A DNA stretch of 64,000 nucleotides, taken from contig CP175956.1 in the NCBI GenBank assembly GCA_046116545.1, positions 77,219 to 141,218 on the forward strand. The letters run 5' to 3'. Source of the DNA: Candidatus Moraniibacteriota bacterium. Lineage in GTDB: Bacteria; Patescibacteriota; Minisyncoccia; Moranbacterales; GCA-2747515. A program made the translations under genes and the position numbers. Positions 9,274-62,400 of this stretch are shown here, piece by piece. The notes under the pieces were generated by a model that saw only the letters and a program-made list of their open reading frames with translations, was not told the DNA's origin and ran no database searches. Each line of letters starts with the position of its first letter. The first letter of the stretch is position 1.

Positions 9274-9490
9274 GTCTTTGCGAACAGAAGTGATGCTTAC
9301 TGTGTTATGTGAAGCAATCTCAAAAGTTTATAAATAATCTAACCGAGATTGCTTCGTCGTACCTCCTCCACCCAGGTGGTCCATCTACTACGCTTTAAAT
9401 TCAGAATAGTCGCTATACAGCTCCTTTCTTCATTTATCTTGAACAGAGTTCAATTTATTATGCCCTTGTGGTACACCTTGACGCAATGAC
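9274..9490. repeat. Palindromic element family A, long variant. It has unit I (gtctttgcgaaca...gtgaagcaatctc) and unit II (gagattgcttcgtcgtacctcctccacccaggtggtcc...), and extends to cttgaacagagttcaatt...caccttgacgcaatgac.
   Basis: Two-stem imperfect palindrome. gaagcaatctc pairs with gagattgcttc, and gtctttgcga pairs with tcgcaaagac. The sequence recurs at 12 or more further sites. Confidence 0.8.
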
Positions 9491-9571
9491 GCACTTTTTT
9501 GAGGCTTGTTTGAGAGTGTTAGGGATTACAAAATATTTAAATTCTATCATTTTCGTAAAACAAACTTTTTG

Positions 9572-9712
9572 GTAGGGACAGTGCCTTGTGCCTGTCCATT
9601 CAAATTTTAGAAATCCTTTATCCGGAATCTAAACTTTAATATTATAGTATAGATTCCGGACAGATTTATTTGTATTCTGATATCTCGGACAGGCACAAGG
9701 CACTGTCCCTAC
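9572..9712. repeat. Palindromic element family C. A 26-bp inverted-repeat pair (gtagggacagtgccttgtgcctgtcc / ggacaggcacaaggcactgtccctac) flanks about 90 bp that contain a nested palindrome (ccggaatctaaac...tagattccgg).
   Basis: The perfect 26-bp inverted repeats are read directly from the sequence. Single arms recur at 15751..15776 and, degenerate, at 45184..45241. Confidence 0.75.
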
Positions 9713-9856
9713 CAAATAATATCTTCCGGAATGGCACAGGCCTATGTTTATTTGTTAATTGAGATTGGGTGTAGTATGTAAAATTCTTGAATTCTAACCA
9801 ATTTAAAAAGACATGACTAACATCATGTCTTTTTATTAAAATTTCATTTTTGAAAT

Positions 9857-12141: not shown

Positions 12142-12229
12142 GAGATTGCTTCGTCGTACCTCCTCGCAAAGACGATATCTAGTCATTGCGAACAGAACCA
12201 AAATCATCTGTGACCTGTGAAGCAATCTC
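12142..12229. repeat. Palindromic element family A (unit II then unit I, opposite order to 9274)
   Basis: gagattgcttcgtcgtacctcctcgcaaagac ... gtcattgcgaacagaacc...gtgaagcaatctc. Confidence 0.8.
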
Positions 12230-12236: not shown

Positions 12237-12539
12237 TTATCCATTTTCTATCATTTTACCATATAAATCAACCCACTCAATATTACTATTTTCAATCAAT
12301 GCAATTTTATTTTTACGCGAACCACTTTTTATTTGTTTTTCTCTAGAAATTGCAGACTCAATTGATGGACATACTTCATAATGTACTAACTTATGCAAAT
12401 TATATCTTTGAGTAAATCCCCTTACAATATTATTTTTGTGTTCCCAAATTCGTTTTTGCAAATTAGTAGTAACTCCAACGTACAAAGTACCATCTTTTTT
12501 ATTCGTTAAAATATACACGCACGAAATTTTTTCATTCAT
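12237..12539 (-). CDS. GIY-YIG domain nuclease family protein (UPF0213-like)
   Basis: Motifs VYILTNKKDGTLYVGVTTNLQKRIWEHK and RPW-like. It is flanked on both sides by family-A repeats. Confidence 0.75.
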   Translation of the reverse strand: MNEKISCVYILTNKKDGTLYVGVTTNLQKRIWEHKNNIVRGFTQRYNLHKLVHYEVCPSIESAISREKQIKSGSRKNKIALIENSNIEWVDLYGKMIENG

Positions 12540-12575: not shown

Positions 12576-12680
12576 GTCTTTGCGAGCAACTGTGACTTTT
12601 ATTATGTCTAGCGAAGCAATCTCCACCAGGTTTATTAATATACTCACTAAGATTGCTTCGTCGTACCTCCTCGCAATGAC
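12576..12680. repeat. Palindromic element family A. Its unit II overlaps the 3' end and supplies the stop codon of the GT4 gene.
   Basis: gtctttgcgagcaactgtgac...gcgaagcaatctc / ctaagattgcttcgtcgtacctcctcgcaatgac. On the minus strand, unit II reads ...V S L R G G T T K Q S stop. Confidence 0.8.
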
Positions 12681-13831
12681 ACATTATTATATAGCTCAAC
12701 ATACTCATTTGCCACATTTTCCCAGTTCATTGTCTCCGCTATCAATCTACTTGCATGTCCCATACCATCACATATTTCTGGATTTTCTATTAATATTTTT
12801 AATTTTTCTACGATTGACTGTACATCATTCATTTTTATGAGATAACCATTTTCTCCATTTCTCACAAGCTCCTCCGCTCCACCTGTTGGTGTCATGAGCA
12901 CTGGAAGACCTGATGCCAATGCTTCTAATAAATTATTACTCATTCCTTCATTTAACGATGGCATCACAAATACATCCGCACTATTATAGATACCTGCAGA
13001 TTCTTCCTTTGTATACAATCCACTAAATGTTACTCGTCCATCTAATCTATATTTTTTCACCTGAGCTTTTAACTCTTCCATTGCATTTCCCTCTCCCCCA
13101 GCTATTTGCATTTTGATATGAGGATACATATCAAATAATTCCACAAAAGCATCTATCGCATAATTAAATCCCTTTCGCCTTGATATTCTAGAAGCTAACA
13201 AAATTTTAAATTCTTTTTTTCTATCTTCAACTGTCCTGCTGCTACTACTATAAAAATCTGTATCCACTCCATTAAATATTTGTACAAATTCTTGTTCTGG
13301 CATAGTACTACTAGCAAGCTCTGTAAGACCTTTACTATTTGTTACAACATAATGTGCATCTTTCCATACTTTGTGAATTGTTGGTGTAATGATTTTATAT
13401 AATTTTTTAAATCTTTCACTGTAACCTGGCACATCAGCACCTCGCAGAGATACAATATATGGAATACCATATTTCTTTTTTAATCTTCTTGATATCACAC
13501 CACTAGGCACAGCAAAAAAACTATGCGTCAAATCATAATCATTTCTAGCAATTAATTTTTTGGCAAATTGATATGCCCTAAACGTGTACTTCAATAATTC
13601 TCCTTTTGTTTGATAATTTAAATTATTTGCACTTTTGCCTATTGGAAGTCTATGTATTATTATATTTTCCCCAACTCTCTCTTGCACGTATTCATCTATA
13701 ATTGAAGATGTAACAAGATCAACAAAAACATCATCTCGACGAGAATACTCATCCAAGATGTATTTTGTAGCATTTGCAGCACCACCTCCAAGTGGAGGAT
13801 ATTCATAATTAAAAAATAATACTCTTTTCAT
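12647..13831 (-). CDS. GT4-family (GT-B fold) glycosyltransferase. Its C-terminal 10 aa and stop codon are encoded by a family-A repeat.
   Basis: N-terminal motif FFNYEYPPLGGGAANA, and a C-terminal domain with an E-x7-E-like segment (FVMPSLNEGMSNNLLEALASGLPVL). It ends ...SLRGGTTKQS. Confidence 0.8.
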   Translation of the reverse strand: MKRVLFFNYEYPPLGGGAANATKYILDEYSRRDDVFVDLVTSSIIDEYVQERVGENIIIHRLPIGKSANNLNYQTKGELLKYTFRAYQFAKKLIARNDYDLTHSFFAVPSGVISRRLKKKYGIPYIVSLRGADVPGYSERFKKLYKIITPTIHKVWKDAHYVVTNSKGLTELASSTMPEQEFVQIFNGVDTDFYSSSSRTVEDRKKEFKILLASRISRRKGFNYAIDAFVELFDMYPHIKMQIAGGEGNAMEELKAQVKKYRLDGRVTFSGLYTKEESAGIYNSADVFVMPSLNEGMSNNLLEALASGLPVLMTPTGGAEELVRNGENGYLIKMNDVQSIVEKLKILIENPEICDGMGHASRLIAETMNWENVANEYVELYNNVSLRGGTTKQS

Positions 13832-15377: not shown

Positions 15378-15543
15378 GTCATTGCGAACAGAGCCCACAT
15401 CATTTGTAACATGTGAAGCAATCTCATTACAATATCTATGTCTTTGCGAACAGAGCCCATGTTCATTATGACATGTGAAGCAATCTCATTGGGTTTATTA
15501 GTTCACTTACTGAGATTGCTTCGTCGTACCTCCTCGCAAAGAC
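15378..15543. repeat. Palindromic element family A. Two tandem unit-I copies are followed by unit II.
   Basis: gtcattgcgaacagagcccacatcatttgtaacatgtgaagcaatctc, then gtctttgcgaacagagcccatgttcattatgacatgtgaagcaatctc, then gagattgcttcgtcgtacctcctcgcaaagac. Confidence 0.8.
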
Positions 15544-15590
15544 GATAGCCTGTGGATAAACTTGAACAGTTATAGAATTATATCCAACCA

Positions 15591-15632
15591 AAACCACCCC
15601 TCAGTCCCCTCCTTAAAAAGGAGGGGAGGTAA
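15591..15632. repeat. Hairpin element family B, part 1 (accacccctcagtcccctccttaaaaaggaggggagg)
   Basis: Near-identical copies lie at 41471..41510 and 45381..45420. A variant lies at 19851..19880. Confidence 0.7.
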
Positions 15633-15635
15633 AAA

Positions 15636-15672
15636 CTAAACTAAACTAAACTAAACTAAACTAAACTAAACA
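15636..15672. repeat. Pentanucleotide microsatellite (ctaaa), about 7 copies
   Basis: Direct tandem ctaaactaaactaaa..., read from the sequence. Confidence 0.85.
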
Positions 15673-15750: not shown

Positions 15751-15776
15751 GTAGGGACAGTGCCTTGTGCCTGTCC
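15751..15776. repeat. Family C arm, single copy
   Basis: gtagggacagtgccttgtgcctgtcc, identical to the 9572 arm. Confidence 0.7.
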
Positions 15777-15850
15777 GAGATATTACTTTACAAATAAATT
15801 CATCAGGAATTTACACTATACGATTATTTCAAATCTTTAGTAACATTCAA

Positions 15851-15905
15851 GCCTCTCCCCTTTTTTAAAGGGGGAGATGTCCTAAGGACAGAGGGGGTTC
15901 CACGC
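15851..15905. repeat. Hairpin element family B, part 2 (ctctcccctttttt aaagggggagatgtcctaaggacagagggggtt)
   Basis: Copies lie at 19931..19980 and 41373..41420. Confidence 0.7.
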
Positions 15906-16929: not shown

Positions 16930-17043
16930 TCTAGCTTTTTTAATTTCTTAAATTCTTAACTAAATACTAACATACCAAATACACAGATTCAACTCTAAGT
17001 TGTATAAGTGCTCCCAAATTTCAGTCTTTGCGAGCAACTGTGC

Positions 17044-17186
17044 CATTTCATACGTCCTGCGAAGCAATCTCGTCAAAATATTTATGTCATTGCGAACAGA
17101 AACCACATCATTTGTAACATGTGAAGCAATCTCCGTAGGTTTATTAATGCACCCACTAAGATTGCTTCGTCGTACCTCCTCGCAAA
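17044..17186. repeat. Palindromic element family A. Two unit-I variants are followed by unit II.
   Basis: gtctttgcgagcaactgtgccatttcatacgtcctgcgaagcaatctc ... gtcattgcgaacagaaaccacatcatttgtaacatgtgaagcaatctc ... ctaagattgcttcgtcgtacctcctcgcaaaaac. Confidence 0.8.
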
Positions 17187-17238
17187 AACAAAATACTTTA
17201 TTGCCTCTCCTTGTAAAGACGTTGTTTTTTAAATGTTT

Positions 17239-19842: not shown

Positions 19843-19850
19843 TAACCACC

Positions 19851-19980
19851 ACTCAATCACCTCCTTTAAAAGGAGGTGAGATAAAAACTAAACTAAACAG
19901 AATTAAAGTTAAGTTAAATTAATCATACTATCCTCTCCCCTTTTTAAGGGGGAGATGTCCGAAGGACAGAGGGGGTTTTG
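19851..19980. repeat. Hairpin element family B (part 1 variant + ctaaa x2 + part 2)
   Basis: tcacctcctttaaaaggaggtga ... ctctcccctttttaagggggagatgtccgaaggacagagggggtt. Confidence 0.7.
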
Positions 19981-20604: not shown

Positions 20605-22467
20605 ATGAGAAACATCAAAAATATATATCTAATAATACTTGCATTATTTTTAATAGCATTTCCCACAGTAATTCATGCACAATCAAAATTGCCATCAATC
20701 CCCATACAATCAATCGCAGCTGAAAAAAACTATGTTGAAGGTGAAGTAATTGTAAAATATAAAATAAATACAAAAAAACAACAATTACTAAAAACATCTA
20801 CAGAAAAAAATGAATCACCAAGACTACTGCAATCTCTACAGGAAACACAATCCATGCATGATCTAAAAATAAAAAATACATTCAAAAATTTAAATATCAC
20901 AACATTACAATCAGATATACAATCAACCCAAGATTTAATAACTAAACTAGAACAAGATCCTGAAGTGGAATATGCGGAACCTAACTACAGAAAATATCCT
21001 ACATCAATACCAAATGATACTTATTTCAAAAGTACACAATGGGCACTATACAATACAGGACAGGAACTTTGTACACCTGACTGCACTACAGGAACAATCG
21101 ATGATGATATTGACGCAACAAATGCTTGGGATATAGAGATTAGTGCTGCCCAAAAAATAACCGTTGCAGTAATAGACAGTGGCTTAAATTATAATCACGA
21201 AGATTTATTACAAAATTTATGGAATGGTGCTAGTTGTGTAAATGAAAATGGAACAACTATACATGGTGGTTGTCCATATCATGGATGGGATTACGCCGAT
21301 AATGACAATAATCCTGCTGATACTACTGGAAGTGCGCAAGGACATGGAACAAGCGTTTCAAGTATATTTGGTGCAACAACAAATAATTCAAAAGGACTTG
21401 CAGGCATCAGTCTATATGGCAATGTAAAGGTTATGGCACTTCGATTTGATTTGGATACAATCTCTGAAATAAAAGCTATTGAATTTGCAAAAAATAATGG
21501 TGTCAAAATTATAAATGCAAGTTTTGCAGGAGATGCCTATTCACAATCAGAAAAAGATGCTATTGATGCATTTCCTGGAATATTTATAACAGCATCTGGC
21601 AACGGTGGCATTGATGGCTTACGTGATAACAATGACGTTACACCGCAATATCCATGTAATTATTCATCAAGTAATATAATATGTGTAGGTGCATCTGATC
21701 AAAATGATAATCTTGCTAGTTTTTCAAATTATGGACAAACAAGCGTTGATTTAGTGGCTCCTGGAGTAAATATATTAATTGCTTGTGATAATGTCTACTG
21801 TACTGGTGATGGTACTTCATTTTCTACACCCTACGTAACAGGTGTTGCTGCAATCTTGTCTAGCCACAATACAAAATTGTCTACATCACAAGTGAAAAGT
21901 TTAATACTTGATAATGTCGATAATGTTGGACTATCAACACAGATAAAAACGGGAGGTCGTCTTAATATGTATAAATCTCTTTACGATTTGAAAACTAGTT
22001 ACGGATATTCATACTCCACAAAACCAGTTTACAGATTCTATTCACCAAGCAATAAAGCACATTTCTTTACTGTATCCGAAACTGAAAAGAATCATATTGT
22101 TGCAACTTACCCAACCACTGAATGGCGATATGAAAATATTGCTTATTATGTACCAACAACATCTACTGGCAATAAGCCTGTGTATAGATTCTATTCACCA
22201 CGCAACAAAGCTCATTTTTTCACTGTATCAGAAACTGAAAAGAATCATATTGTTGCAACTTACCCAACCACTGAATGGCGATATGAAAATATTGCTTATT
22301 ATGTACCAACAACATCTACTGGCAATAAGCCTGTATATCGATTTTATTCTCCACGTAACAAAGCACATTTCTTTACTGTATCAGAAAGTGAAAAGAATCA
22401 TATTGTTGCAACTTACCCAACCACTGAATGGCGATATGAAAATATTGCTTATTATGTACCAAAATAA
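20605..22467 (+). CDS. Secreted subtilisin-like serine protease (peptidase S8) with three C-terminal 42-aa tandem repeats
   Basis: Signal peptide. Catalytic triad motifs VAVIDSG (Asp), HGTSVSS (His) and GTSFSTPYVTGVAA (Ser). The C-terminus has three near-identical repeats PVYRFYSPRNKAHFFTVSETEKNHIVATYPTTEWRYENIAYYVP. Confidence 0.85.
   Translation: MRNIKNIYLIILALFLIAFPTVIHAQSKLPSIPIQSIAAEKNYVEGEVIVKYKINTKKQQLLKTSTEKNESPRLLQSLQETQSMHDLKIKNTFKNLNITTLQSDIQSTQDLITKLEQDPEVEYAEPNYRKYPTSIPNDTYFKSTQWALYNTGQELCTPDCTTGTIDDDIDATNAWDIEISAAQKITVAVIDSGLNYNHEDLLQNLWNGASCVNENGTTIHGGCPYHGWDYADNDNNPADTTGSAQGHGTSVSSIFGATTNNSKGLAGISLYGNVKVMALRFDLDTISEIKAIEFAKNNGVKIINASFAGDAYSQSEKDAIDAFPGIFITASGNGGIDGLRDNNDVTPQYPCNYSSSNIICVGASDQNDNLASFSNYGQTSVDLVAPGVNILIACDNVYCTGDGTSFSTPYVTGVAAILSSHNTKLSTSQVKSLILDNVDNVGLSTQIKTGGRLNMYKSLYDLKTSYGYSYSTKPVYRFYSPSNKAHFFTVSETEKNHIVATYPTTEWRYENIAYYVPTTSTGNKPVYRFYSPRNKAHFFTVSETEKNHIVATYPTTEWRYENIAYYVPTTSTGNKPVYRFYSPRNKAHFFTVSESEKNHIVATYPTTEWRYENIAYYVPK
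22018..22464 (+). repeat. Three near-identical 126-bp tandem coding repeats
   Basis: The copies differ at only a few nucleotides. The alternate-frame ORF 22097..22525 is an artefact. Confidence 0.85.
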
Positions 22468-22540
22468 AATAATACCTACCAACTCATCGCCATTGCTAGG
22501 AAGTACAACGAAGCAATCTCAATAATAAACTCCAGCATTC

Positions 22541-23539: not shown

Positions 23540-23622
23540 AATTTTCCTATCATATTACCTGTCTTTGCGAGGAGCGTTTAGCGACGTGGCAATCTCGACA
23601 ATAATACCACTAAACTCTCTAA

Positions 23623-24820: not shown

Positions 24821-24926
24821 CGAAGCAATCTCAAAAAGAACACTCCTCTGTCTTTGCGTCAAGGTGAATTGAGCTCTGCTCAAGAGAGGGACCACCTGGG
24901 TGGAGGAGGTACGACGAAGCAATCTC
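24821..24926. repeat. Palindromic element family A, long variant (intergenic)
   Basis: cgaagcaatctc ... gtctttgcgtcaaggtgaattgagctctgctcaagagagggaccacctgggtggaggaggtacgacgaagcaatctc. ORF 24854..25048 is a read-through of this element. Confidence 0.8.
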
Positions 24927-24933: not shown

Positions 24934-26346
24934 CTATACAAAACAACTCTCCTTATCAAATCCCTTTCTCTCCCCTCTACCACTCTGTTCAATGAAAAAT
25001 GCATCATCCTTTTTATACGTATGCTCACCATGTCGCACACGGATATAATTATATCTATGTGTCGAATAAGCAGAATCACCATTCTCAATGATACGCCCCA
25101 CTAACTCAGCATCAATTGACTTTTTTATACTGGCAAACTTATATTTTTTCATGTCATCTGTTCGTATCAATATAGTTCCACCAGGCAGATGTGACCACCA
25201 ACGATCCTCCGCCTGCTCTCCAAACTCTATCATGACATCACTTTGCTCCAGATACGTAAAATTACCAGTCTTACCCACAATAGTAGCTTGTGAATAATGC
25301 AAGGCAAGATAGATATCATCTAAATGATTTGGACCATAATAATCATCATCATCCATTTTTGTAATATAATCTCCTGTGGCATTATCAACTCCAATATTTA
25401 AATTGTCTCCAAAAATTGTTAATGCATCTTTTTGTATAATCCTCACATCATAAGCCAAGTTCAATGTTTTAGATTTTATTTCATCAACATCAAACTCATC
25501 TCCATGCAATATCAAAATCAATTCTTTATTTGGATAATTTTGCAAAGAAATATTTTCAAATAATTGATTAATGTTCTCTGGACGCATAGTCGAAACAATG
25601 ATTGAAATTTTTTCCAACTTCTTTTTTTCAGACATGTTTATTTGTCCAAACTCAGTCATAACATATCGCCTCAAAACAATACTAAGTTTTTCTCTATAAA
25701 ACAAATCTTCACACTTCATTACAAATTCATCGGCATCATCATATGAACCAATGAAATTCATATATTCTTTTGGTATATATTTTTCCAAAGATGCTTTATC
25801 TCCCACTATCAAAGGCGCTCCCATTGCCATCAATTTCAATACACACCTAGTATAAGCATATTTTGTCTCAAATAATTCATCATCACAAATAACTACACTA
25901 CATAACTTCAATTTTTCTTTATCATATTTATCAGAAAAATCAACAAAATATTTTTTAATTTCGCTATAATTACTAAAATGCTTATCAAAAATACCTGTTT
26001 TAAATAAACTTTTCAGTTTCTTATTATTTCGCCTCTCCCCCACAATACAAATTTTTTCATTAGGATTATTTTGCCAATTGATTGGATTGTATTTCAATAT
26101 ATCTACAATACATTTGGCATTCTTCACATCATTTTCATCACACCCGCACATCTCATCAATTTTCTTACTACCATTTGCTACAAATATCAATTCTTTATTT
26201 TTATTTTCAAATAATATTTTACAGCAATTAACTGGCAGAGTAATGATTTTTACAGAACTTTTTACAGAACGAAAAAATAGCGCCTTTAGCCGCTCTTTTT
26301 TCGTTTCAAAAGTTAAAATATTTTCGATAATATTTAGATTTTTCAT
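24934..26346 (-). CDS. Two-domain protein with a C-terminal GT2-like glycosyltransferase domain
   Basis: C-terminal half has SIIVSTMRPENINQLFENISLQNY...LILHGDEFD and a DDD motif. Confidence 0.5.
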   Translation of the reverse strand: MKNLNIIENILTFETKKERLKALFFRSVKSSVKIITLPVNCCKILFENKNKELIFVANGSKKIDEMCGCDENDVKNAKCIVDILKYNPINWQNNPNEKICIVGERRNNKKLKSLFKTGIFDKHFSNYSEIKKYFVDFSDKYDKEKLKLCSVVICDDELFETKYAYTRCVLKLMAMGAPLIVGDKASLEKYIPKEYMNFIGSYDDADEFVMKCEDLFYREKLSIVLRRYVMTEFGQINMSEKKKLEKISIIVSTMRPENINQLFENISLQNYPNKELILILHGDEFDVDEIKSKTLNLAYDVRIIQKDALTIFGDNLNIGVDNATGDYITKMDDDDYYGPNHLDDIYLALHYSQATIVGKTGNFTYLEQSDVMIEFGEQAEDRWWSHLPGGTILIRTDDMKKYKFASIKKSIDAELVGRIIENGDSAYSTHRYNYIRVRHGEHTYKKDDAFFIEQSGRGERKGFDKESCFV

Positions 26347-34283: not shown

Positions 34284-34294
34284 TACTCAAACTA

Positions 34295-34320
34295 GATTCC
34301 CGCCTACGCGGGAATGACAC
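34295..34320. repeat. Family-D hairpin (gattcccgcctacgcgggaatgaca) in the 3' intergenic spacer
   Basis: Short palindrome ending in ggaatgaca. Terminator-like position downstream of cysC. Confidence 0.55.
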
Positions 34321-34902: not shown

Positions 34903-36318
34903 TTATTTTTTGCTCCATTCGTGTTCAATGCGCATTATTCCTACTCCAGACCCTTTTTGTTTTTTAATTTTGATAATATGATTATTTAGTTCTTTTGTTG
35001 AATTAGAATCCACAATATCATTTTGTCCACTTTTATTTTCAAATAAAACAGCTTTTATATATATTTCCCCCGTGTTAAACATCGTGTTTTTAAAATAAAT
35101 TATAAATACATTTCTATCTTTTTGCCAACTGCAATTAAAATTATCTACATCTGTATTATTACCACACAAAAATACATTTGTTTCATTGTCAAAAATTTGC
35201 ACTGCTTGCACAAGATTATGCTTAATTTTTGAAACTTGCACTTCAATCTCTACAAAAAAATCATCACCCCATGTAATTTCAGTTAATTTATTTCTATCTA
35301 TATCAAAAACCTGTATATCTGTAATTATATTTTCATTTTTCACTTGTCTTTTCATACCACCTCTTAGTGATTTCTCATGTTCCTGCTCTTCTTTTTCAAT
35401 CCGTTCCTTTTTTTCTAATTCTTCACGTTGGTCTTCAGACATATTTTTAATAATATATTCATCACATACATCATTCACATCACCAGAACCAAGTAATTCA
35501 CCCTTATGTAATAATAAAGCTCTATCACAATATTCTCGCACTGTTGCCATACTGTGGGTTACTAATATTACAGTTTTTCCCCTCTCTTTATATCCTCTGA
35601 AAATATCAAGACACTTCTCTTGAAATCTACTATCCCCCACAGCCAATACCTCATCCATAATAAGTATTTCACGATCTGCATGAATTGACACACTGAAAGC
35701 GAGACGAGCCTTCATGCCACTTGAATAATTTTTTAATTGTTCGTCTATAAATTTTTCTAATTCTGCAAATGCGACTATTTCATCAAACTTTTCATCAATT
35801 TGTTTTTTTGTTAAACCTAGTACTGTCGCATTGAGATATATATTGTCTCGTCCTGATAATTCTGGATTAAAACCTATTCCTAGCTCAAGGAATGGTGATA
35901 TCATACCATTTACCTCAATTGATCCAGATGTTGGTTGATAAACACCTGCTAAAATCTTTAACAATGTAGACTTACCTGCCCCATTATGTCCTATAATTCC
36001 CAAAAATTCTCCTTTTTTTACTTCTACTGAAATATCTTTGAGAGCGTAGAATTCTTCATATGTATTTTTTTTCAAAGAATTCACAAAAGCACTTTTCATT
36101 GAATCAATTTTTTTGTGAGGAATTTTAAAGATTTTTGAGACGTTTTTTACTTTTACTGCTATTTCTTTATCTGGCTGAGATTGCTTCGTCGTACCTTCTC
36201 CACCCAGGTGGTCCCTCTCTTGAACAGAGTTCAATTCACCTTGACGCAAAGATGCATCTTTTTTTACTTTGATGCTTTTATCTTTTTTATTTGATTGTTG
36301 GTTATTTTTTTTATTCAT
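34903..36318 (-). CDS. wzt: ABC transporter ATP-binding protein of the Wzt/TagH/KpsT polysaccharide-export type, with a C-terminal substrate-binding (Wzt_C-like) domain. It carries an in-frame 84-nt family-A insertion near the N-terminus.
   Basis: Walker A GHNGAGKST, signature YSSGMKARLAF and Walker B ILIMDEVLAVGD. An extra ~180-aa beta-rich C-terminal domain is present. The N-terminal leader contains SLRQGELNSVQERDHLGGEGTTKQSQP, encoded by repeat A. Confidence 0.8.
   Translation of the reverse strand: MNKKNNQQSNKKDKSIKVKKDASLRQGELNSVQERDHLGGEGTTKQSQPDKEIAVKVKNVSKIFKIPHKKIDSMKSAFVNSLKKNTYEEFYALKDISVEVKKGEFLGIIGHNGAGKSTLLKILAGVYQPTSGSIEVNGMISPFLELGIGFNPELSGRDNIYLNATVLGLTKKQIDEKFDEIVAFAELEKFIDEQLKNYSSGMKARLAFSVSIHADREILIMDEVLAVGDSRFQEKCLDIFRGYKERGKTVILVTHSMATVREYCDRALLLHKGELLGSGDVNDVCDEYIIKNMSEDQREELEKKERIEKEEQEHEKSLRGGMKRQVKNENIITDIQVFDIDRNKLTEITWGDDFFVEIEVQVSKIKHNLVQAVQIFDNETNVFLCGNNTDVDNFNCSWQKDRNVFIIYFKNTMFNTGEIYIKAVLFENKSGQNDIVDSNSTKELNNHIIKIKKQKGSGVGIMRIEHEWSKK
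36177..36251. repeat. Palindromic element family A, long unit II, inserted in-frame in wzt
   Basis: gagattgcttcgtcgtaccttctccacccaggtggtccctctcttgaacagagttcaattcaccttgacgcaaagat. This is the reverse complement of the intergenic copy at 24850..24926. Confidence 0.85.
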
Positions 36319-37226: not shown

Positions 37227-37640
37227 TTACTTTGGCACATAGTATGATACTCCTTCATACCTCCATTCTGTTGTAGGATATGTTGCAATAATATGATCCT
37301 TTTCACTTTCTGAAACTGTGAAAAAATGTGCCTTATTACGTGATGAATAAAATCTATATACTGGTTTATTACCTGCTGCAACTGTTGGCACATAGTATGA
37401 TATACCTTCATATCTCCATTCTGTTGTAGGATATGTTGCAATAATATGATCCTTTTCACTTTCTGAAACTGTGAAAAAATGTGCCTTATTACGTGATGAA
37501 TAAAATCTATATACTGGTTTATTACCTGATGCAGATGTTGGCACATAGTATGATATTCCTTCATATCTCCATTCTGTTGTAGGATATGTTGCAATTATAT
37601 GATTCTTTTCACTTTCTGAAACTGTGAAAAAATGGGCCTT
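37227..37640 (-). repeat. Three near-identical 126-bp tandem coding repeats
   Basis: Visible DNA periodicity. The alternate-frame ORF 37181..37594 is an artefact. Confidence 0.85.
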
Positions 37641-40600
37641 ATTACGTGCTGAGTAAAATCTATATACAGCTTGTTTTTCTTGTCTATCTGCATTCTCTTC
37701 TTCTATACCGTCTACATCAAAACTTATTGGAAAATCTGTATCATTTGTATTTCCTGATTCTTCTGTACACCTTATATAATAATTGTACGTATTTCCGTCT
37801 GATAATCCTGTTATATCATGTCCATGATCCTCGCCTCCTGTAACATTTGTCATTGCTGACATATCTGCATAAACTGTATTTAGAGCATCAGAATATCTAC
37901 ATGTTGCATTTTCCCATGTATTTAAATATATTTCTACACTAGTTGTTCCACTTGGTTGTGTCCCATCTGGGCTACCATCAAATCTATCTGGCATTGTATT
38001 ATCTACTTCAAAAGAAGTAACACTTAATACATTACTGGTATTTGCAGAACCATCTGTCACACTAATTGTACAATTACTATGAGTTCCCTCCGATAAAAAA
38101 TTAAAAGTAATTGTGTTATTTCCAACAGTCGCTGTACTTGTAACACTAGAGCAATCACCTCCATAAGTAATAGTTCCTACTTCATCTGTGTTGAATGTAT
38201 AGTCTGGTGTATTATTATTTGTTGGAGTTGATACTGGTGTCACTTCCGTTACTATAGGCGCTACCACATCGCTAATTGATTCATCTTTTATTTTTGATAC
38301 AAAAATATCATAACATCCATATGATGTTAAAGTATTTCCAGTCATATTAATTGTATCTTTAAATCTTCCAACTAAATATCCTTTCCCATAGTCATTAAAA
38401 GCCATTGCTTCACCTGTGTCAGTGCTTGTATTGCCCCAAGACTCTAATGAACTAGCATCTCCAGTTACAACATCTAATATTCCATAAAATATATCATAAC
38501 CACCAGCAGAACTCACGGGCAATGCGTCTGCATATAATGTTCCATAAAATCCACCTGTTATATATATGTTATTATCATTTACTTTAATGTCTGTACTATT
38601 CGTTGATGACGCGTTAGTCCAATGCTTCATCCAATCTACATCTCCATCAGTATTCAATCTTGCAATATATATATTATCATTACTGATTCCTGCTAAGGCT
38701 TGTCCAAATACATCTGCATTATTTTGAAACGTGCCTGATGTATACACATTTCCACTATCATCTATATCAATTGTATATCCATAATCACGAGCATACTCTG
38801 CACTACCACCTCCCTGTTTGGACCATACACTATCTCCATTTACATCTAATTTTGCCAAAAATATATCATATCCTCCAGTTCCACCACCTTCCGTAAATAC
38901 ATTCCCAAAAATATTTGCAACATCACTAAAATAACCGGTAACAAATACATTTCCATTTGTGTCTGTGACAATATCATTGCCTTTATCTAGGCTAGAGCCA
39001 CCCGATCTTTTTGCCCAAATATTATTTCCATCACTATCTATCTTTGCTACAAAAATATCATCACTACCAGCTGATACTAGAGATACTCCTAAAATATCAG
39101 TAGTCCCCGCAAATGAACCAGTTATGTACAAATCATCATTATCATCTATATATATCGATTTAGGATATTCTGTACTTGTACCACCAAAATTATATGCCCA
39201 AATCACATTACCATCATTATCTAATTTTGAAAGATAACCATCATAACTTCCGTTTGATGTTAAATCTATTCCAAAAATATTTGCATCATTACTAAAATAG
39301 CCTGTTAGATATAAATTACCCATGCTATCAATTTCAATAGATGGACTAGTTACATAACCAGTACCGTAAGCATGTTTTGTCCAAACAGAATTCCCATCTA
39401 AATCCAACTTTGTAATGAACGTATCCCACGGTCCATCTGCCACTAAATTTGTACCAAATATATCAGCATCTGTGTTAATAATTCCAACAACATAAGCATT
39501 TCCAGAATCATCAATAACAACATCATAAGCACCTTCACTTCCGCCTGAGTACGTATATGAGTTACACAATCCTGCATAATCCCCACCAGCATGTTTTGTC
39601 CACTCTGTAGTTCCAATATTAATATTTTTCATCATCAATTTTGTACCATTTGAACCGTCTGGCATATTATCATTTGATTCAAATGCTATTTTACTTCTGT
39701 CGGGTGAGATTGATGGTGCTCCATCATATCCTGCAAAATTTGTAAGTCTCTCCACAGTACCGCCTGCAACTGGAATTTTATAAATTTGTGCTAAATTTGT
39801 TTCAAAATCACTACTGTAGATTATATAATGACCATATTCTGAAAATACAGCATCTGTCTTGTCACCTGCACCACTTGTAACTTTTGATTTGTCTGTTCCA
39901 TCTGTATTCATAGTCCATATATCCCACATACCTCCATCTAATTTTTGATATAAAATTTTATCTCCTTTTGGTGACCAATTTGGTTGTCTACAATCATCTC
40001 CCGTATCTGTTAGATTTATGTAACTACTACTTCCATCAATTTTATACTTTGTAATAATTCCATCAGTTGGCACATCTACATCATGAGTTTCAAAAACAAC
40101 CCACTGACCATCGTGACTAAATGACGGTTCATATGACATTTTAGCACTCCCGCCTATTCTATCTGTAATTTTAACTTCTGCTCCTGTTGTAGCACTATCA
40201 CCTATACGAAATACTTCATCATGTGGATCTTTAGATGAAGAAAATGTTATTTCATTTCCAACCCATGAACTCCCAGGTAAATTCACATTATCATTTCCAT
40301 CACTCATGAGTTCTGTCACATTTTCTGATGCTATATCATAAATGTATAAATCAGCCGGACCTTCATTATATCCATTTCTCCACCGTGTAAAAAGAATTTT
40401 ACTTCCATCGGGAGAAAAAGCAGGGTTTTGCAAACTACCTGTTAAATTTATATTTAATACTGTCTCCCCATCATTTCTGACTATATAATCCTCGCATCCA
40501 AATCTGTATGCATCTAAATCAAGATTTTTCTTAAGCCAAGAATATCCACTAGAGTTTGCCTGTGAACAAAATTTATCTGTATCTACTCTGTACTCAACTC

Positions 40601-41370: not shown

Positions 41371-41512
41371 ACCTTCTCCCCTTTTTAAAAGGGAAGATGT
41401 CCGATAGGACAGAGAGGGGTTTGTTATAGTAGCTTTTTAATCTTTGTATTATTTAGTTCTTATTTTTACCAAAACCACCCCTCAGTCCCCTCCTTAAAAA
41501 GAAGGGGAGGCT
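41371..41512. repeat. Hairpin element family B (part 2 then part 1)
   Basis: ccttctcccctttttaaaagggaagatgtccgataggacagagaggggtt ... accacccctcagtcccctccttaaaaagaaggggagg. Confidence 0.7.
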
Positions 41513-41934: not shown

Positions 41935-44900
41935 TTATTTAATTAACTTTTTAAAAATAAACACACTAACAATCATCAAAAATAATAGGAATATTCCAAT
42001 CAAAATATCTTTGATTGATTTTTTGTTTTCGGAATTATTATCATCTTTTATTTCCTTATTTTCATTTTCTACTGTATTGTTTTGAGATTTCTCTACTTCG
42101 GTCGAAATAACGTCCTTTTCATTTGCCACATCATCCCCCAGAGATTGCTTCGTCGTACCTCCTCGCAAAGACTCATTATTAAAAATATTTTCCGTAATAT
42201 TATTTTTTTCGTCATCGTCATCATCATTGTCTTTGTCATCATCTTTATTTTCATTGCTTTCACTACTACTAAATACTGTACTTCCATCATTTCCATCCTC
42301 TAATGTAGTAGTTCCATTGATTTGTGGTACAACTTCATAATCATTACTTCCATCACCATCATAATCAGCTGTGAGTCTTGTAATATTTTCCAATCCAGTT
42401 CTTGGAATTGCAAAACTTACTTTTGTATTTTCTGATGTTGGTAGATTTTCCATTGTTAGATATGAGGTTACTTCTTCTCCTGCCTCCGTGATACTCACTT
42501 CCTCTAATTTGATAGTATATGAACCTGTATTATAACCATCCAACTCCACGATTATATCACTACCACCCCATCCTACAAATTTATGTTCTCCAAATACATC
42601 GTAATAACTATTTGGCATATTTTCTTCTATAATTTGATTTCCATTTTCATCTATTATGGGTCCTGTGTGATTTCCTTGATTGTCGTATAAATGAATGTCT
42701 AGTGGTGAATATAATGCCATTCTAAGTCTTTTTGCACTGTGTTTACTATGCTTTATTGCGTCAGTGTCATCTGGTCTATTTTTCGTGATATAATCAGACA
42801 ATTCTTCTTGAATTTCATGTTTACTGATGATATTTGAGATTAAATTTCGTAACGACTTAACTTCTAAAATATCTTTGTGCTTTCTATCTTTCGCAAAACC
42901 CTTATTTTCTTCATACATATCCAAAAAATATTTCTCAACATTCTCAGATTCTGACATCATAAGTGAACTTGGTGTTACTACAACATTATCTCCATCTACT
43001 GTATATTTTGGTATATATGATTCTACTGTTACATCTTTGCATTTCGTTCTTTTTATTCCTTCTTTTGTTACTTTATCTTCACATTCTACTTTTGTGATAC
43101 TTTCATAATCTATTTCACTTATTGTATCAAGCCCCCAGCCTCCTATTTGTATTAGATTTACATTTTCTGGTGGTGTCCAGTTATTTAACTCTTCGTGCAA
43201 TTCTTTATTTTCATCAAATAATTTCTCATTTAATATATTTGCTCTTTTTGTATCATTCTTATTTGGTTTGTGTCTATTATCTTTTTTTGCCAATAGAAAA
43301 TCCTTGAATTCATCATAACTATTTATTGTATCTCCATATGCTTTTTTGTATTTCTTGTATTCTGATTTTTCTGATTTAAAATTTATTATTGGTTTATCTA
43401 TTCTTCTGAAATATTCTTCTGTTGGTAAAAGTCCATAAGCAGATGGCATATTTCGTACTACCTCCCTAGCTTCTGCGTCACTGATAACTGAATTTAATTC
43501 TATTTTTTCATCAAATCCATACAACATTGTCAAGATTGCCTTTGATGTTCCCATTTGTGGTGAACTTACCATGACAATATTATCAACTTTATCTGTCATG
43601 TTCAATATTTCAAGTTGTTGCATTATGGATTTTGCTAGTAATCCACCATTTGAATGAGCTACAATTGTAACTTTTCCACTAACTGATGAGTCAGATAATC
43701 TCATCACTTCACTTATTGGATTTTTTATAGAACTCATTTCATAATTTGTTCCATTTATTGCAATATCGTCTACACTTTTTCTCCAATCATATGCATATAA
43801 AGAATAATCATTTATTATTCTATCATCTTTTAAGTTTTTTAAATCTCCAAAAAATCTTTTGTAAATATTTGGAGCTAATACACTAGGAAGTCCTGCTTCA
43901 TAAATTGGCTCTTCAGTGAAAATATCATTTATACTATTTCCATCTTCATCTAATAATATATTTTTGTAATCATCTCCACCTGGAGTAGGTGGCCATACTT
44001 GATTTGTACCGTCATATAATCTGCTAGCTTTTGCACCTGGTAAAAACAATACATTTGATGCAAAATCCGATGATCCTCTCCAATCGTATTCTAATACATT
44101 TGTATCTCCGCTTACTTTTTCACCTGCTGCTAATATTGCATAATCGTCTCCATTTTCATTAACAAAGTTACCTGTTGGACCGTTTGTATGTCCGTACCAA
44201 TTATTTTCTAAAATAACCTTGCTACTGTCATGAGTCATTGCATCATTTTCACATGTTTCACAACATGCATCATAAATAGCATCATTTTGATTATTGTTAT
44301 ATTCATCATCACAGTTATCATAACAAATATCTTCTCCTTCAAAGTCATAAACTACAACATTTGAAATTACTGCTATATTTTGTCCACTTTCTTCAAAATT
44401 AGAATTTTTAATATGTACATAACTATTTTCATTGTAATCTTCTTCAAGTTCCATCTCTACTTGAATATCTGCATACTTGCTATTTTTGAAAATAACATTT
44501 TCCATATCTAATTGTCCTGACATATGTAGTATTGCTGGTGCTTTTCGAATAGCTTCTTCATCTGCATAAACATTATTTGTTATGATGTCATGTATTGCTA
44601 TCCCTGGACAATGTAATTCATTGTAATCAAAATATTCTCCCAATCCATCAAATTCTACAAATTTAAAAAATGATGGTTCAAATATATAACCATCAATTTC
44701 ATACGTATCAAATTTAAATGCTGAAACTCCACCTAAATCACACTGCTCATCAAACTCATTTCCTTCATTAAATGGAGTTTTTGTAAAAACTATTTTATTA
44801 TCAATATCGCCAACTGCAACAATACGTCCAGCATCTTGTACTACGATATGCTTTATTGATATATGTGATCCAGCTTCAATAGTTACTGTTGCACCATCAA

Positions 44901-45090
44901 TGATATATACCGCACCATACTCACTCAAATCTGTATCACTGTTCCATGTTACATCTGTAGTAATATATAAGTCATCACCATACCAAGCGTTTATATATTT
45001 GTGTATATATAAAAAATCAAATCGCAATGGTGCGAGAATGATTATTAGGATTAGAATTGTATTGATCGACTTTAAGATAAAGTTTTTCAT
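41935..45090 (-). CDS. Large secreted alpha/beta-hydrolase (lipase/esterase, LCAT/PGAP1-like) with an acidic low-complexity region, an in-frame family-A insertion and a C-terminal TM anchor
   Basis: Signal/TM N-terminus. Nucleophile-elbow-like VTIVAHSNGGLLAKS. Acidic tract DDDKDNDDDDDEKNN. Insertion NESLRGGTTKQSLGDD. C-terminal TM ILIGIFLLFLMIVSVFIF. Confidence 0.55.
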   Translation of the reverse strand: MKNFILKSINTILILIIILAPLRFDFLYIHKYINAWYGDDLYITTDVTWNSDTDLSEYGAVYIIDGATVTIEAGSHISIKHIVVQDAGRIVAVGDIDNKIVFTKTPFNEGNEFDEQCDLGGVSAFKFDTYEIDGYIFEPSFFKFVEFDGLGEYFDYNELHCPGIAIHDIITNNVYADEEAIRKAPAILHMSGQLDMENVIFKNSKYADIQVEMELEEDYNENSYVHIKNSNFEESGQNIAVISNVVVYDFEGEDICYDNCDDEYNNNQNDAIYDACCETCENDAMTHDSSKVILENNWYGHTNGPTGNFVNENGDDYAILAAGEKVSGDTNVLEYDWRGSSDFASNVLFLPGAKASRLYDGTNQVWPPTPGGDDYKNILLDEDGNSINDIFTEEPIYEAGLPSVLAPNIYKRFFGDLKNLKDDRIINDYSLYAYDWRKSVDDIAINGTNYEMSSIKNPISEVMRLSDSSVSGKVTIVAHSNGGLLAKSIMQQLEILNMTDKVDNIVMVSSPQMGTSKAILTMLYGFDEKIELNSVISDAEAREVVRNMPSAYGLLPTEEYFRRIDKPIINFKSEKSEYKKYKKAYGDTINSYDEFKDFLLAKKDNRHKPNKNDTKRANILNEKLFDENKELHEELNNWTPPENVNLIQIGGWGLDTISEIDYESITKVECEDKVTKEGIKRTKCKDVTVESYIPKYTVDGDNVVVTPSSLMMSESENVEKYFLDMYEENKGFAKDRKHKDILEVKSLRNLISNIISKHEIQEELSDYITKNRPDDTDAIKHSKHSAKRLRMALYSPLDIHLYDNQGNHTGPIIDENGNQIIEENMPNSYYDVFGEHKFVGWGGSDIIVELDGYNTGSYTIKLEEVSITEAGEEVTSYLTMENLPTSENTKVSFAIPRTGLENITRLTADYDGDGSNDYEVVPQINGTTTLEDGNDGSTVFSSSESNENKDDDKDNDDDDDEKNNITENIFNNESLRGGTTKQSLGDDVANEKDVISTEVEKSQNNTVENENKEIKDDNNSENKKSIKDILIGIFLLFLMIVSVFIFKKLIK
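42141..42172. repeat. Palindromic element family A, unit II, inserted in-frame (encodes SLRGGTTKQS)
   Basis: gagattgcttcgtcgtacctcctcgcaaagac. Exact match to intergenic copies. Confidence 0.85.
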
Positions 45091-45273: not shown

Positions 45274-45321
45274 GAGATTGCTTCACATATCACAAATAAT
45301 GTCACTTCAGTTCGCAAAGAC
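45274..45321. repeat. Palindromic element family A, unit I in reverse orientation
   Basis: gagattgcttcacatatcacaaataatgtcacttcagttcgcaaagac. Confidence 0.75.
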
Positions 45322-45380
45322 GCTACACAAATGATACTGATTTTTCATTTAAAATTTGTTTTATACTTACGTTATATACA

Positions 45381-45420
45381 AAAACACCTCTCAGTCCCCT
45401 CCTTAAAAAGGATGGGAGGT
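45381..45420. repeat. Hairpin element family B, part 1
   Basis: aaaacacctctcagtcccctccttaaaaaggatgggagg. Confidence 0.7.
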
Positions 45421-45482
45421 TATTAAACTTACACAAAATAGATATTACATAATATTATAGGATTTTCTCAAACTTTTCGAAA

Positions 45483-45508
45483 GATTCCTGCCTTCGCAGG
45501 AATGACAT
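45483..45508. repeat. Family-D hairpin immediately downstream of the GT gene (terminator-like)
   Basis: gattcctgccttcgcaggaatgaca. Confidence 0.6.
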
Positions 45509-45514: not shown

Positions 45515-46714
45515 TTATTTTAACTTACTTTTTAAATACTCATAATATTCCGCATTCTTTGTATTTTGTGTTGTATATTCTTTTATTGTTTTTTGATATG
45601 CTTTTTGTCCCATTTTGATTCTTAGATCTTTATTTTCTATTAACTGTGCTAGTTTGTCTGTCCATTCTTCTGAGTTTTTTGCTGTGAATCCATCCACTCC
45701 ATCTTCAATAGCATCTTGATATGTTTGATTGTCTATTGCTATTGTTGGAACTTTTACTATTCCTGCCTCAAAAAACTTTAATTCTGACTTTGCTTCACAA
45801 AATGGATTATTATATTCTAATGGCGCAAGATTAATATCACATTGTGCTATATTTGCAAAATGTTTACTACGCTTCACGTAGGGTAATTGTTTAATTCTAT
45901 CTCCAAACTTTTTCACTAAATCATTTTCAACATCCAATGGACCGACTAATAATAACTCTACATTTTTATACTTTTCCATTATTGTCATCAATGGTTCTGT
46001 GATTGTTGCAAAATCTTTGTTGTGGCTTATTGTTCCACTGAAGTAGCCTAGTTTTACTATATCCTCTCGAGATTGCTTCGTCGTCGTACCTCCTCCTCGC
46101 AATGACAATAAAGCTTTTTTTGCACCATCAATATCTTTTTTTGATAATTTATTTTGTACTATGAAAACTTCTTTATTTTCTTGTCTTAATTTGTTTGCAA
46201 GAAATTTTGTGGTTGTGGTTGCGACTTTCACATATTCATCTTTTAATATTTCTCCACCCACTCCATTTTCATAAAGCTTCTTTTCCAGACTATTCATTTT
46301 TTTATAATAATCCATATGTTCTAAATATTTTGGATCATATACCAAATCATCTGTTTCAAAAATGATTATCTTATTTTGTTTTTTTATTTCTTCTACTAGC
46401 TTTGCTATTTTTTTTGTATTTAAAGTTCTATGAAAAATAAATATTGAAAATTTATTTACATAACTAACTAGTCTTGGATTATCTTGTACTGTAACTGAGC
46501 ATTTGAATCCATTAAATTCTAATTCTTCGGCTATATGAGTTGTCCTGTGTAACGCACTATCACCTACTCCACCTGAAATAAATAAAATGTCTCCACTGCC
46601 AACCTTGCGAAATAATGCAAAGAACGCACTTAAAACACGTTTTGAACCATTGATGAGTCCATCTCGTTTTATTACTTGCCACGACTTTCCTATTTTAATT
46701 AAGAATGTATTCAT
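45515..46714 (-). CDS. GT-B fold glycosyltransferase (GT1/GT4-like) with an in-frame family-A insertion in the inter-domain linker
   Basis: C-terminal Rossmann domain with an E-x7-E-like segment (CEAKSELKFFEAGIVKVPTIA). Linker contains LSLRGGGTTTKQSRED. Confidence 0.55.
   Translation of the reverse strand: MNTFLIKIGKSWQVIKRDGLINGSKRVLSAFFALFRKVGSGDILFISGGVGDSALHRTTHIAEELEFNGFKCSVTVQDNPRLVSYVNKFSIFIFHRTLNTKKIAKLVEEIKKQNKIIIFETDDLVYDPKYLEHMDYYKKMNSLEKKLYENGVGGEILKDEYVKVATTTTKFLANKLRQENKEVFIVQNKLSKKDIDGAKKALLSLRGGGTTTKQSREDIVKLGYFSGTISHNKDFATITEPLMTIMEKYKNVELLLVGPLDVENDLVKKFGDRIKQLPYVKRSKHFANIAQCDINLAPLEYNNPFCEAKSELKFFEAGIVKVPTIAIDNQTYQDAIEDGVDGFTAKNSEEWTDKLAQLIENKDLRIKMGQKAYQKTIKEYTTQNTKNAEYYEYLKSKLK
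46068..46106. repeat. Palindromic element family A, unit II, with internal triplet duplications, inserted in-frame
   Basis: gagattgcttcgtcgtcgtacctcctcctcgcaatgac. The tcg and cct triplets are duplicated relative to the canonical unit. Confidence 0.85.
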
Positions 46715-59827: not shown

Positions 59828-59947
59828 GTCTTTGCGAGCATTGCCATAACATATGTAATAAGCGAAGCAATCTCGTTTAATTTTTTAATATTCTAATTGA
59901 GATTACTTCGCCTTGTGGTAATAAATATCCCAATTGCTCGCAAAGAC
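59828..59947. repeat. Palindromic element family A, complete unit I + loop + unit II
   Basis: gtctttgcgagcattgccataacatatgtaataagcgaagcaatctc ... gagattacttcgccttgtggtaataaatatcccaattgctcgcaaagac. Confidence 0.8.
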
Positions 59948-62372: not shown

Positions 62373-62400
62373 TTGTCATTCCTGCGTAGGCAGGAATCTT
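62373..62400. repeat. Family-D hairpin (gtcattcctgcgtaggcaggaatc) in the grpE-dnaK spacer
   Basis: Read from the sequence. A related tggaatgacaa lies at 62490..62510. Confidence 0.5.

Follow-up and report, generated by a model that had tools for sequence, protein, structure and literature searches.

Among the described systems in which a short oriented repeat goes with a small nuclease, the one closest to the repeats considered in this work is that of SsnA from Neisseria meningitidis, a 94-aa single-domain GIY-YIG protein whose binding to the oriented repeat CGTCATTCCCGCGMAVGCGGGAATCYRG is confined to single-stranded DNA, and which makes its cut immediately upstream of the repeat and reduces transformation by DNA in which the repeat is present (Chenal et al. 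2025, PMC11893778). Homologs of Ssn are widespread and usually flanked by Ssn-related motifs (NTS/SRM), hairpin-forming inverted repeats of 20-50 nt, in a motif-gene-motif layout that resembles an insertion sequence, and 2% of the Neisseria repeats are located inside genes (PMC11893778). The present work concerns a stretch of 64,000 nt from a Candidatus Moraniibacteriota bacterium (GCA_046116545.1, contig CP175956.1, positions 77,219 to 141,218), referred to in what follows as the window, and in particular a 32-nt unit found there inside the gene of a large alpha/beta-hydrolase. This unit belongs to a family of short repeats, here named family A, most copies of which lie between genes.

Repetitive extragenic palindromes (REPs) form a wider circle of relatives, and have been sorted into GTAG- and CGTC-tagged superfamilies, the latter including dRS3 of Neisseria and the Rickettsia palindromic elements RPE-4 and RPE-6; CGTC REPs occur as head-to-head dimers and also in frame in genes, at termini and in modular proteins, and no transposase was known for them at that time (Di Nocera et al. 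2013, PMC3733652). Our best reading of the hydrolase copy, to which we assign a probability of roughly 0.7, is that it is an old and tolerated in-frame intragenic copy of an Ssn-type, REP-like repeat, analogous to the Rickettsia palindromic elements. The evidence is of two kinds: three coding copies, i.e., the one in the hydrolase gene and two more, recur in a sister species that has diverged and have changed far less than the sequence around them, and genes for a subclade of Ssn-like GIY-YIG nucleases are bracketed by family A, with which they co-vary.

The copy in the hydrolase gene and its age

The host gene (41935..45090, minus strand) encodes a protein of 1051 aa, identical to NCBI ACKUBY_00600 from a Candidatus Moraniibacteriota metagenome-assembled genome (MAG; 1.29 Mb contig) and characterized by its open reading frame (ORF) and family matches as a secreted or anchored lipase-like alpha/beta-hydrolase (PGAP1/LCAT-like). 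An original prediction, made from the letters alone, had already named it an alpha/beta-hydrolase, and the matches to the PGAP1-like, Palm_thioest and LCAT families, together with the nucleophile elbow AHSNGG, bear this out. The 32-mer GAGATTGCTTCGTCGTACCTCCTCGCAAAGAC is located at 42141-42172 (minus strand) and has exact copies at 12142-12173 and 15512-15543, both intergenic, so that the 32/32 match to intergenic copies claimed earlier is real; copies with 2 mismatches are found at 12649-12680 and 17158-17189, and none of 100 dinucleotide-preserving shuffles contained a match. On the sense strand the unit reads GTCTTTGCGAGGAGGTACGACGAAGCAATCTC and codes (E)SLRGGTTKQS(L), the peptide ESLRGGTTKQSL standing in the acidic linker that precedes the transmembrane (TM) anchor, within the translation ...NNESLRGGTTKQSLGDD... 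or, at greater length, ...ITENIFNNESLRGGTTKQSLGDDVANEKD....

The minus-strand translation of the whole gene likewise agrees with the predicted location, in frame in a D/E/N-rich linker ahead of a C-terminal TM anchor. Ortholog comparison places this low-complexity linker at 42007..42249 (minus strand, approximate limits), where it evolves rapidly, with insertions and deletions among orthologs; the unit sits in it ~55 residues N-terminal of the hydrophobic C-terminal segment ILIGIFLLFLMIVSVFIFKKLIK, and the anchor, ILIGIFLLFLMIVSVFIF followed by KKLIK (41938..42006, minus strand), is conserved in orthologs. The frame stays open for ~70 codons past the unit, up to the conserved anchor, and in a window of ~31% GC, from which the GC-rich 32-mer stands out, so long an open frame after such a unit is good evidence that the region is translated. 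Since 32 is not a multiple of 3, which the first reading of the sequence had missed, the entity that is in frame is the unit together with its flanks.

Comparison with orthologs separates the two halves of the original claim of a "recent insertion". In another Moraniibacteriota MAG, GCA_029933995.1, the gene of the closest ortholog, P0002 (70% aa identity), holds the identical 32-mer at the same site. A second ortholog, P0003 (56% identity), has at this site a 40-nt relative, GTCATTGCTAGACAGAGCGAGGTAATTCACAATCAATCTC, translated as NVIARQSEVIHNQSQ, and orthologs at 51% identity or less show no trace of a unit. Set against the orthologs as a whole, the unit is thus an insertion, and this half of the claim stands; that it is recent does not. 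Over the whole gene, P0002 and the window hydrolase are 76% identical at the nucleotide level and 65% identical at third codon positions in a codon-guided alignment, flanking windows of the linker are 60-72% identical, with insertions and deletions, and a 39-residue stretch that follows the unit in the window's linker has no counterpart in P0002. The block strictly common to both orthologs is the 41 nt AATAATGA-[32-mer]-T, so that identity extends past the unit by 8 nt on its upstream side and by 1 nt on its downstream side, and the next 11 nt contain one difference. It is the second longest exact run in the gene, the longest, 43 nt, being in a conserved domain. By our arithmetic, eleven unchanged third positions at 65% identity have a probability of ~0.009, and thirty-two unchanged bases at 76% identity one of ~1.5e-4. 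As the identical 32-mer and the same immediate flanks are present in an ortholog of 76% nucleotide identity, the insertion predates the split of these two well-diverged species.

Two other coding copies of the window behave in the same way, both being shared with the sister genome GCA_029933995.1. The first is a form of 77 nt that is read in frame within the N-terminal extension of an ABC/Wzt ATPase (copy at 36176..36253, minus strand, in the gene at 34903..36318; ASLRQGELNSVQERDHLGGEGTTKQSQ), which recurs at the same place in the sister genome with 74 of 76 nt identical, in genes that are 72.5% identical overall and 57% identical at third positions. The second is a 38-nt form, in which the triplets GGA and ACG are added to the 32-nt unit; it is read in frame within the interdomain linker of a glycosyltransferase (GT; copy at 46069..46106, minus strand, in the gene at 45515..46714; LSLRGGGTTTKQSRE). 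At this GT linker a family-A unit is present in four lineages that are mutually 76-80% identical, as the 38-nt form in the window, as 32 nt with one substitution, as the exact 32 nt, and as 77 nt in the sister genome. A fourth coding copy, a 32-nt unit with 2 mismatches (12649..12680, minus strand), supplies the last 10 codons of a GT4 glycosyltransferase (12647..13831; ...VSLRGGTTKQS*). All four coding copies use the GTC strand as sense and the same frame (SLR..KQS), and all are in linkers or at protein ends.

The original prediction had taken the undiverged state of the hydrolase copy as a sign of youth, and it is here that it fails. The 26-nt core of the unit, GATTGCTTCGTCGTACCTCCTCGCAA, occurs exactly in at least 120 unrelated metagenome stretches, with locus GC from 0.32 to 0.60 and samples that include seawater, soil and gut, usually as one copy per locus and often with a shorter unit in inverse orientation, e.g., GTCATTGCGAGGAACGAAGCAATC, ~20 nt ahead of it. 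When unrelated bacteria have the core in unaltered form, its identity to copies nearby gives no date, and counting the divergence of coding versus intergenic copies as a measure of age would mislead in family A. The natural inference that identical copies are young copies is thus corrected for this family, in which identity carries no age information.

The exact core was also seen on two viral-classified IMG/VR contigs (L207, 6831-6856; L208, 3436-3461), one of them with the usual inverted partner; a GIY-YIG gene was found near neither core within the stretch fetched.

Family A and its candidate nuclease

Family A is modular. Read from the GTC strand, its units have a fixed head, GTCWTTGCGA, then a variable interior that would form a small hairpin, and a fixed tail, GAAGCAATCTC. 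The strict pattern GAGATTGCTTC-N(0-30)-GCAAWGAC has 13 matches in the window and none in shuffles, so the family is real; the assignment of the hydrolase copy to an intergenic repeat family is right. A looser scan gives ~20 copies in the 64 kb, with total lengths that depend on the interior: 32, 35, 38, 47-48, 77 and 146 nt. Among 151 distinct interiors from all loci, at least 3 end-to-end pairs can be formed, tandem G.A allowed, in 52%, versus 2.7% of shuffles. This covariation supports a common frame, composed of an outer stem ATTGC/GCAAT, an internal loop GA/GAA, and then G-GA-[variable stem-loop]-GA-C, of which the 32-mer would be the minimal version, GGAG-GTA-CGAC.

Next to the exact intergenic copy at 12142 lies a gene of the Ssn-like single-domain type (12237..12539, minus strand), whose 100-aa product matches Pfam GIY-YIG over residues 7-79 (E = 1.3e-17), with no other Pfam domain, and is a candidate for the cognate enzyme of the repeats. 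Searches of PDB and NCBIfam with this protein returned a distant UPF0213 structure, 1zg2, and sub-threshold hits only. The gene is bracketed by two pairs of units, 12142-12229 and 12576-12680. On its downstream side the exact 32-nt unit (12142..12173, minus strand) is joined by a 48-nt unit in inverted orientation that lies 8 nt past the stop codon (12182..12229, plus strand), and on the other side another 48-nt unit (12576..12623, plus strand) lies 37 nt upstream of the start codon. The association is found outside the window too: 9 of the ~120 metagenome loci with the core, among the matches listed, have a GIY-YIG ORF within ~200 nt of it, typically with family-A units on both sides.

A scan for homologs of the nuclease, with one genome per species and a two-sequence alignment as the query, found at least 535 relatives, the best 80 of which were analysed. 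These 80 are 51-62% identical to the window protein and come from Bacillota, Coxiellaceae, Rickettsiaceae, Saccharibacteria, Chloroflexi, Nitrospirae, Treponema, Omnitrophota and others. When the 300 nt around each gene were typed, family-A flanks were present in 31 of the 80 (both sides in 22), flanks matching the published SRM expression in 29 (both sides in 12), and neither type in 22. The 29 SRM-flanked homologs lend indirect support to the view that the window protein may belong to CDD clade cd10448, that of the Ssn proteins. In 53 of 55 cases a nuclease and its nearest neighbour in sequence have flanks of one type, compared with a mean of 27 and a maximum of 40 under permutation. One alignment column follows this division closely, 27 of 29 family-A-flanked proteins reading REKQIKxG versus 26 of 26 SRM-flanked proteins reading REKQIKxW, and the window protein has the G. 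The residue two positions after REKQIK, G with family A and W with SRM among the 80 loci (L127-L206), is put forward as a candidate specificity determinant, and family A would be the cognate DNA motif of this subclade of Ssn-type single-domain GIY-YIG proteins.

Several features of the locus are those of the Ssn system, namely a single-domain GIY-YIG gene of ~100 aa with a short oriented repeat on either side of it, a repeat that starts with HGTCWY and ends in a ..RNCYNB-like manner (AATCTC), many dispersed copies that cluster near envelope and surface genes and are rarely intragenic, and close homologs (51-62%) flanked by repeats of the SRM expression. The differences are in the stem, which in family A is ATTGC/GCAAT with a GA/GAA internal loop and a variable mini-hairpin versus the 8-9 bp ATTCCCGC stem of SRM; in the nuclease, a separate subclade (G vs W after REKQIKx); and in the host, which belongs to the candidate phyla radiation (CPR), a group unmentioned in PMC11893778. 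With the CGTC-tagged REPs, family A shares a stem that starts with A-T pairs, frequent head-to-head dimers and some in-frame copies, at termini or in modular linkers; the four families described there have stems of 8-9 bp, loops of 4-5 nt and a CCA tail (PMC3733652), whereas the outer stem of family A has 5 bp and is followed by an internal loop and a variable inner hairpin, and the tail is CTC. Where those REPs have an unpaired CGTC or TGTC tag at one end, the window copies read CGTC, TGTC or AGTC, and the hydrolase copy reads AGTC, not CGTC.

The Rickettsia palindromic elements offer an analogy for the intragenic copies, as they are selfish-looking repeats found both between genes and in frame within functional ones, tolerated in surface-exposed or linker segments and shared between species (Ogata et al. 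2000, as cited in PMC3733652 and PMC1779305). RPE-1 elements are ~100-150 bp long and restricted to Rickettsia, while the unit considered here has 32 nt, belongs to a family that crosses phyla, and comes with a candidate cognate nuclease. REPIN/RAYT systems (Bertels and Rainey 2011, PMC3116915) are comparable in their inverted doublets that form long hairpins, in having one small nuclease or transposase gene set between the repeats, and in their long persistence; the family-A head is, however, GTC(A/T)TTGCG and not GTAG, the enzyme is a GIY-YIG protein and not an IS200/IS605-type tyrosine transposase, and no RAYT was seen within the window. Bacterial miniature inverted-repeat transposable elements are also short, non-coding, multicopy and sometimes in frame in genes (review PMC10969869), but family A lacks their 15-30 bp terminal inverted repeats and is far below their 70-300 bp. 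The ends of its units match only as GNNATTGC, and no target-site duplication was seen beside the copies at 42141, 46069 and 12142. What is less ordinary in the present case is that coding copies in a CPR genome are so deeply conserved at the nucleotide level, and that the evidence points to family A as a distinct motif class to which a separate nuclease subclade corresponds.

Canonical NTS-like units, TGTCATTCCCGCGTAGGCGGGAATCTAG and TGTCATTCCTGCGTAGGCAGGAATCTT, stand alongside family A at 34292-34319, 45480-45507 and 62374-62400, and only the first of them matches the SRM expression, as the single match in the window; a W-type GIY-YIG gene was not found in the window. Other classes of element were considered for family A and dropped, i.e., integron attC sites, DNA uptake sequences, CRISPR, k-turn RNA and self-cleaving ribozymes, each for want of a consensus match or a supporting structure. 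For nine units of 47-48 nt RNAalifold returned just a 4-bp outer stem and one covarying pair, too little to call a structured RNA, and Rfam gave no match at the gathering score over the whole window. A sequence-based literature search with GTCATTGCGAG, CTCGCAATGAC, GAAGCAATC and GATTGCTTCG retrieved unrelated primers only.

History of the insertion and competing explanations

The history that we propose would have the unit enter the disordered acidic linker of the hydrolase before the split from the GCA_029933995.1 lineage, and survive there owing to a permissive linker and to a strand and frame that give a short, hydrophilic and flexible peptide, SLRGGTTKQS. Its identity to the intergenic copies would come from the near-invariance of the whole family at the nucleotide level and not from youth, the likely cause of this invariance being the need to stay a recognition site for the nuclease, possibly aided by gene conversion between copies. 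The nuclease of the window would recognise the GTC strand of the units as single-stranded DNA, and the hydrolase copy would be a tolerated passenger, not an adaptation of the protein.

Several points weigh against this reading. The hydrolase insertion is dated by one close ortholog pair only. The 77-nt GT copy of the sister genome has 4 interior substitutions, with both ends intact, relative to the ABC copy of the same genome, which means that coding copies can drift and that the constraint is less than absolute. The published SRM expression, HGTCWYN(0-2)YYVSBRHN(0-5)WNVSBRGN(0-2)RNCYNB, fails to match any family-A unit. Finally, the isolated 32-mer does not fold with nearest-neighbour DNA parameters on either strand (z = +0.8 vs shuffles), and the hairpin proposed for it requires tandem G.A pairs. 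Such pairs are not credited by standard energy models, and the related GCGAAGC interior is a well-known, very stable DNA mini-hairpin; we conjecture that the uncredited pairs would explain the null fold.

A further-reaching version, which we put forward as possible and in a tentative spirit, is that family A is a second, so far undescribed class of recognition site, used by a distinct subclade of Ssn single-stranded-DNA nucleases (G for W after REKQIKx), and that its intragenic copies are held by nucleotide-level selection as cleavage or binding sites, gating recombination or transformation of envelope and surface genes in CPR bacteria, which depend on DNA uptake. If this were true, the hydrolase linker would be under a dual constraint, for a tolerated peptide and for a preserved nuclease site.

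The competing explanation that survives best, although we consider it unlikely, accepts an old neutral insertion and ascribes its identity to gene conversion alone, without functional constraint. Donor copies with identical ends are many, and the 32-, 38- and 77-nt forms replace one another at the GT linker, as conversion would produce. Conversion within a genome, however, leaves the identity of 26-30-mers across unrelated phyla unexplained, as well as the tracking of repeat type by the nuclease sequence, and the 4 interior differences between the GT and ABC copies of the sister genome indicate that homogenisation is inefficient. Rather improbable, in our judgement, are parallel independent insertions at a hot-spot site, one per lineage, in which case each copy might be young. 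The 40-nt member, of a different length, at the site in the 56%-identical hydrolase ortholog speaks for it, as do the three lengths of unit in the GT linker of sister lineages and the peptides, apparently of unrelated repeat families, in distant orthologs; yet immediate flanks shared by the hydrolase pair within a linker of otherwise 60-72% identity fit inheritance better, and the variety at the GT linker is also explained by a permissive linker with internal insertions and deletions or conversion.

A recent transposition into the hydrolase gene, with a unit that is exact because it has newly arrived, accords with the 32/32 match to two intergenic copies and with the local abundance of the family, but the same unit, site and flanks in an ortholog with 65% identity at third positions, and a core that does not change across unrelated bacteria, leave it very little room. 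Just as hard to sustain, or slightly harder, is the idea that SLRGGTTKQS is a selected protein motif, e.g., a processing or sorting signal, and that the likeness of the DNA is secondary. In its favour, the four coding copies of the window share strand and frame. The same DNA is, however, intergenic in ~16 of 20 copies, its hosts are unrelated and carry it at differing positions (N-terminal extension, interdomain linker, extreme C-terminus and pre-anchor linker), and synonymous positions are conserved too. A bias of frame is in any case expected from filtering: the three sense frames of the unit read VFARRYDEAI, SLRGGTTKQS and LCEEVRRSNL, and the frame in use is the hydrophilic, glycine-rich one. 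Coding copies account for ~4 of 20 in a mostly coding window, a low share, in keeping with a strong filter that removes most insertions into coding sequence. Short GC-rich repeats can mislead assemblers, but an assembly or sequencing artefact such as a repeat-induced chimera, which the original prediction had named as what could undo it, is excluded for practical purposes by the ~70 codons that continue in frame to the TM anchor in a 31% GC genome and by the same structure in the independent assembly of a different species, GCA_029933995.1.

Reduced CPR genomes, as this case shows, carry REP-like repeats that persist in frame in envelope genes across species, with particular linkers acting as repeated landing or retention sites. 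A very widespread motif becomes linked to the recently discovered Ssn single-stranded-DNA nucleases, and a second motif class with a matching nuclease subclade would be a concrete enzyme-site pair, possibly with a new specificity for single-stranded-DNA tools. The motif is presumably also the source of many spurious "hypothetical proteins", such as those with ...SLRGGTTKQS or ...VIARR....

Other copies and repeats in the window

The intergenic copies are in part organized as mosaics, in which one or two 48-nt units come first, a conserved spacer of 24-25 nt (..AGGTTTATTAAT..CACT) next and an inverted 32-nt unit last, and their doublets fold into long hairpins with DNA z-scores of -3.6 to -6.6. 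One mosaic, at 15378..15543, has 48-nt units at 15378-15425 and 15440-15487 (both plus), a conserved 24-nt spacer, and the exact 32-nt unit at 15512-15543 (minus); its last 48-nt unit, spacer and 32-nt unit, folded as 15436-15547, form such a long hairpin. The mosaic at 17024..17189 has the same layout (17024-17071 plus, 17086-17133 plus, 17158-17189 minus), and at 9274..9490 a 48-nt unit (9274-9321, plus) is followed by the spacer and an expanded unit of 146 nt (9345-9490, minus). The remaining intergenic copies are a 35-nt unit, GTCTTTGCGAGGAGCGTTTAGCGACGTGGCAATCT (23561..23596, plus), a 77-nt form directly past the stop codon of the gene at 24934..26346 (24850..24926, plus), a 48-nt unit (45274..45321, minus), and an inverted pair of 47- and 48-nt units at 59828..59947 (59828-59874 plus, 59900-59947 minus). 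With one exception the 32-nt-type units have their GTC strand on the minus strand, and the 48-nt units are mostly on the plus strand; GC skew is negative across nearly the entire window (1-64000) and the genes are mostly on the minus strand. This bias of unit strand suggests that the units are oriented by rule with respect to replication or transcription.

In the 77-nt form, a module of 45 nt interrupts the 32-nt unit after GTCTTTGCG. The module, TCAAGGTGAATTGA(G/A)CTCTG(C/T)TCAAGAGAGGGACCACCTGGGTGG, was seen at this fixed point in the copies at 24850-24926, 36176-36253 and 9345-9490 and at 1046-1121 of the sister-genome stretch L125, the 146-nt unit being a longer version of the same arrangement. 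The swapping of 32- and 77-nt forms at the GT site, together with the fixed point of the module, suggests nested insertion or conversion.

The interdomain linker of the GT at 45515-46714 is a repeated retention site for repeats; in distant orthologs it is either short and empty or filled by peptides that resemble other GC-rich repeat families. Fillers observed among 120 orthologs (P0121-P0240) include CHSERSEESQ, CHSGLDPES, ISRQARNDK, PSPPTPLPKGEGD and IQNSKFKIQNS. No clean insertion boundary or target duplication could be defined from empty versus filled GT alleles, as the linker varies in length and sequence even among the empty ones. In the sister genome the N-terminus of the ABC/Wzt protein (L125, 5091-6608) has a second in-frame repeat, SRDAINRVST, which is the translation of a GTAG-type palindrome, GTAGAGACGCGATTAATCGCGTCTCTAC, found twice in the window with 28/28 identity (1312-1339 and 4941-4968); a second REP superfamily is thus also present inside genes in this lineage.

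For a small genome, this one is unusually rich in repeats. Other GC-rich short families of the window, mostly located downstream of genes, are CCACCCCTCAGTCCCCTCCTTAAAAAGGAGGGGAGG, CTCCCCTTTTTTAAAGGGGGAGATGTCC..GGACAGAGGGGG, and GGTAGGGACAGTGCCTTGTGCCTGTCC in inverted pairs, and their coordinates are 15589-15630, 19841-19882, 41470-41511 and 45379-45420; 15855-15899, 19933-19977 and 41376-41420; and 9559-9725 and 15751-15826. Tandem coding repeats of 153 nt (YRFYSxRNKAHFFTVSESEK...) lie at the C-terminus of a 1342-aa surface protein (37232-37690) and recur, at 77-79% identity, in two genes on the opposite strand (18389-18994 and 22034-22486). Finally, ACTAA(A) pentamers and hexamers form a short tandem array at 15632-15670, beside a repeat mosaic.

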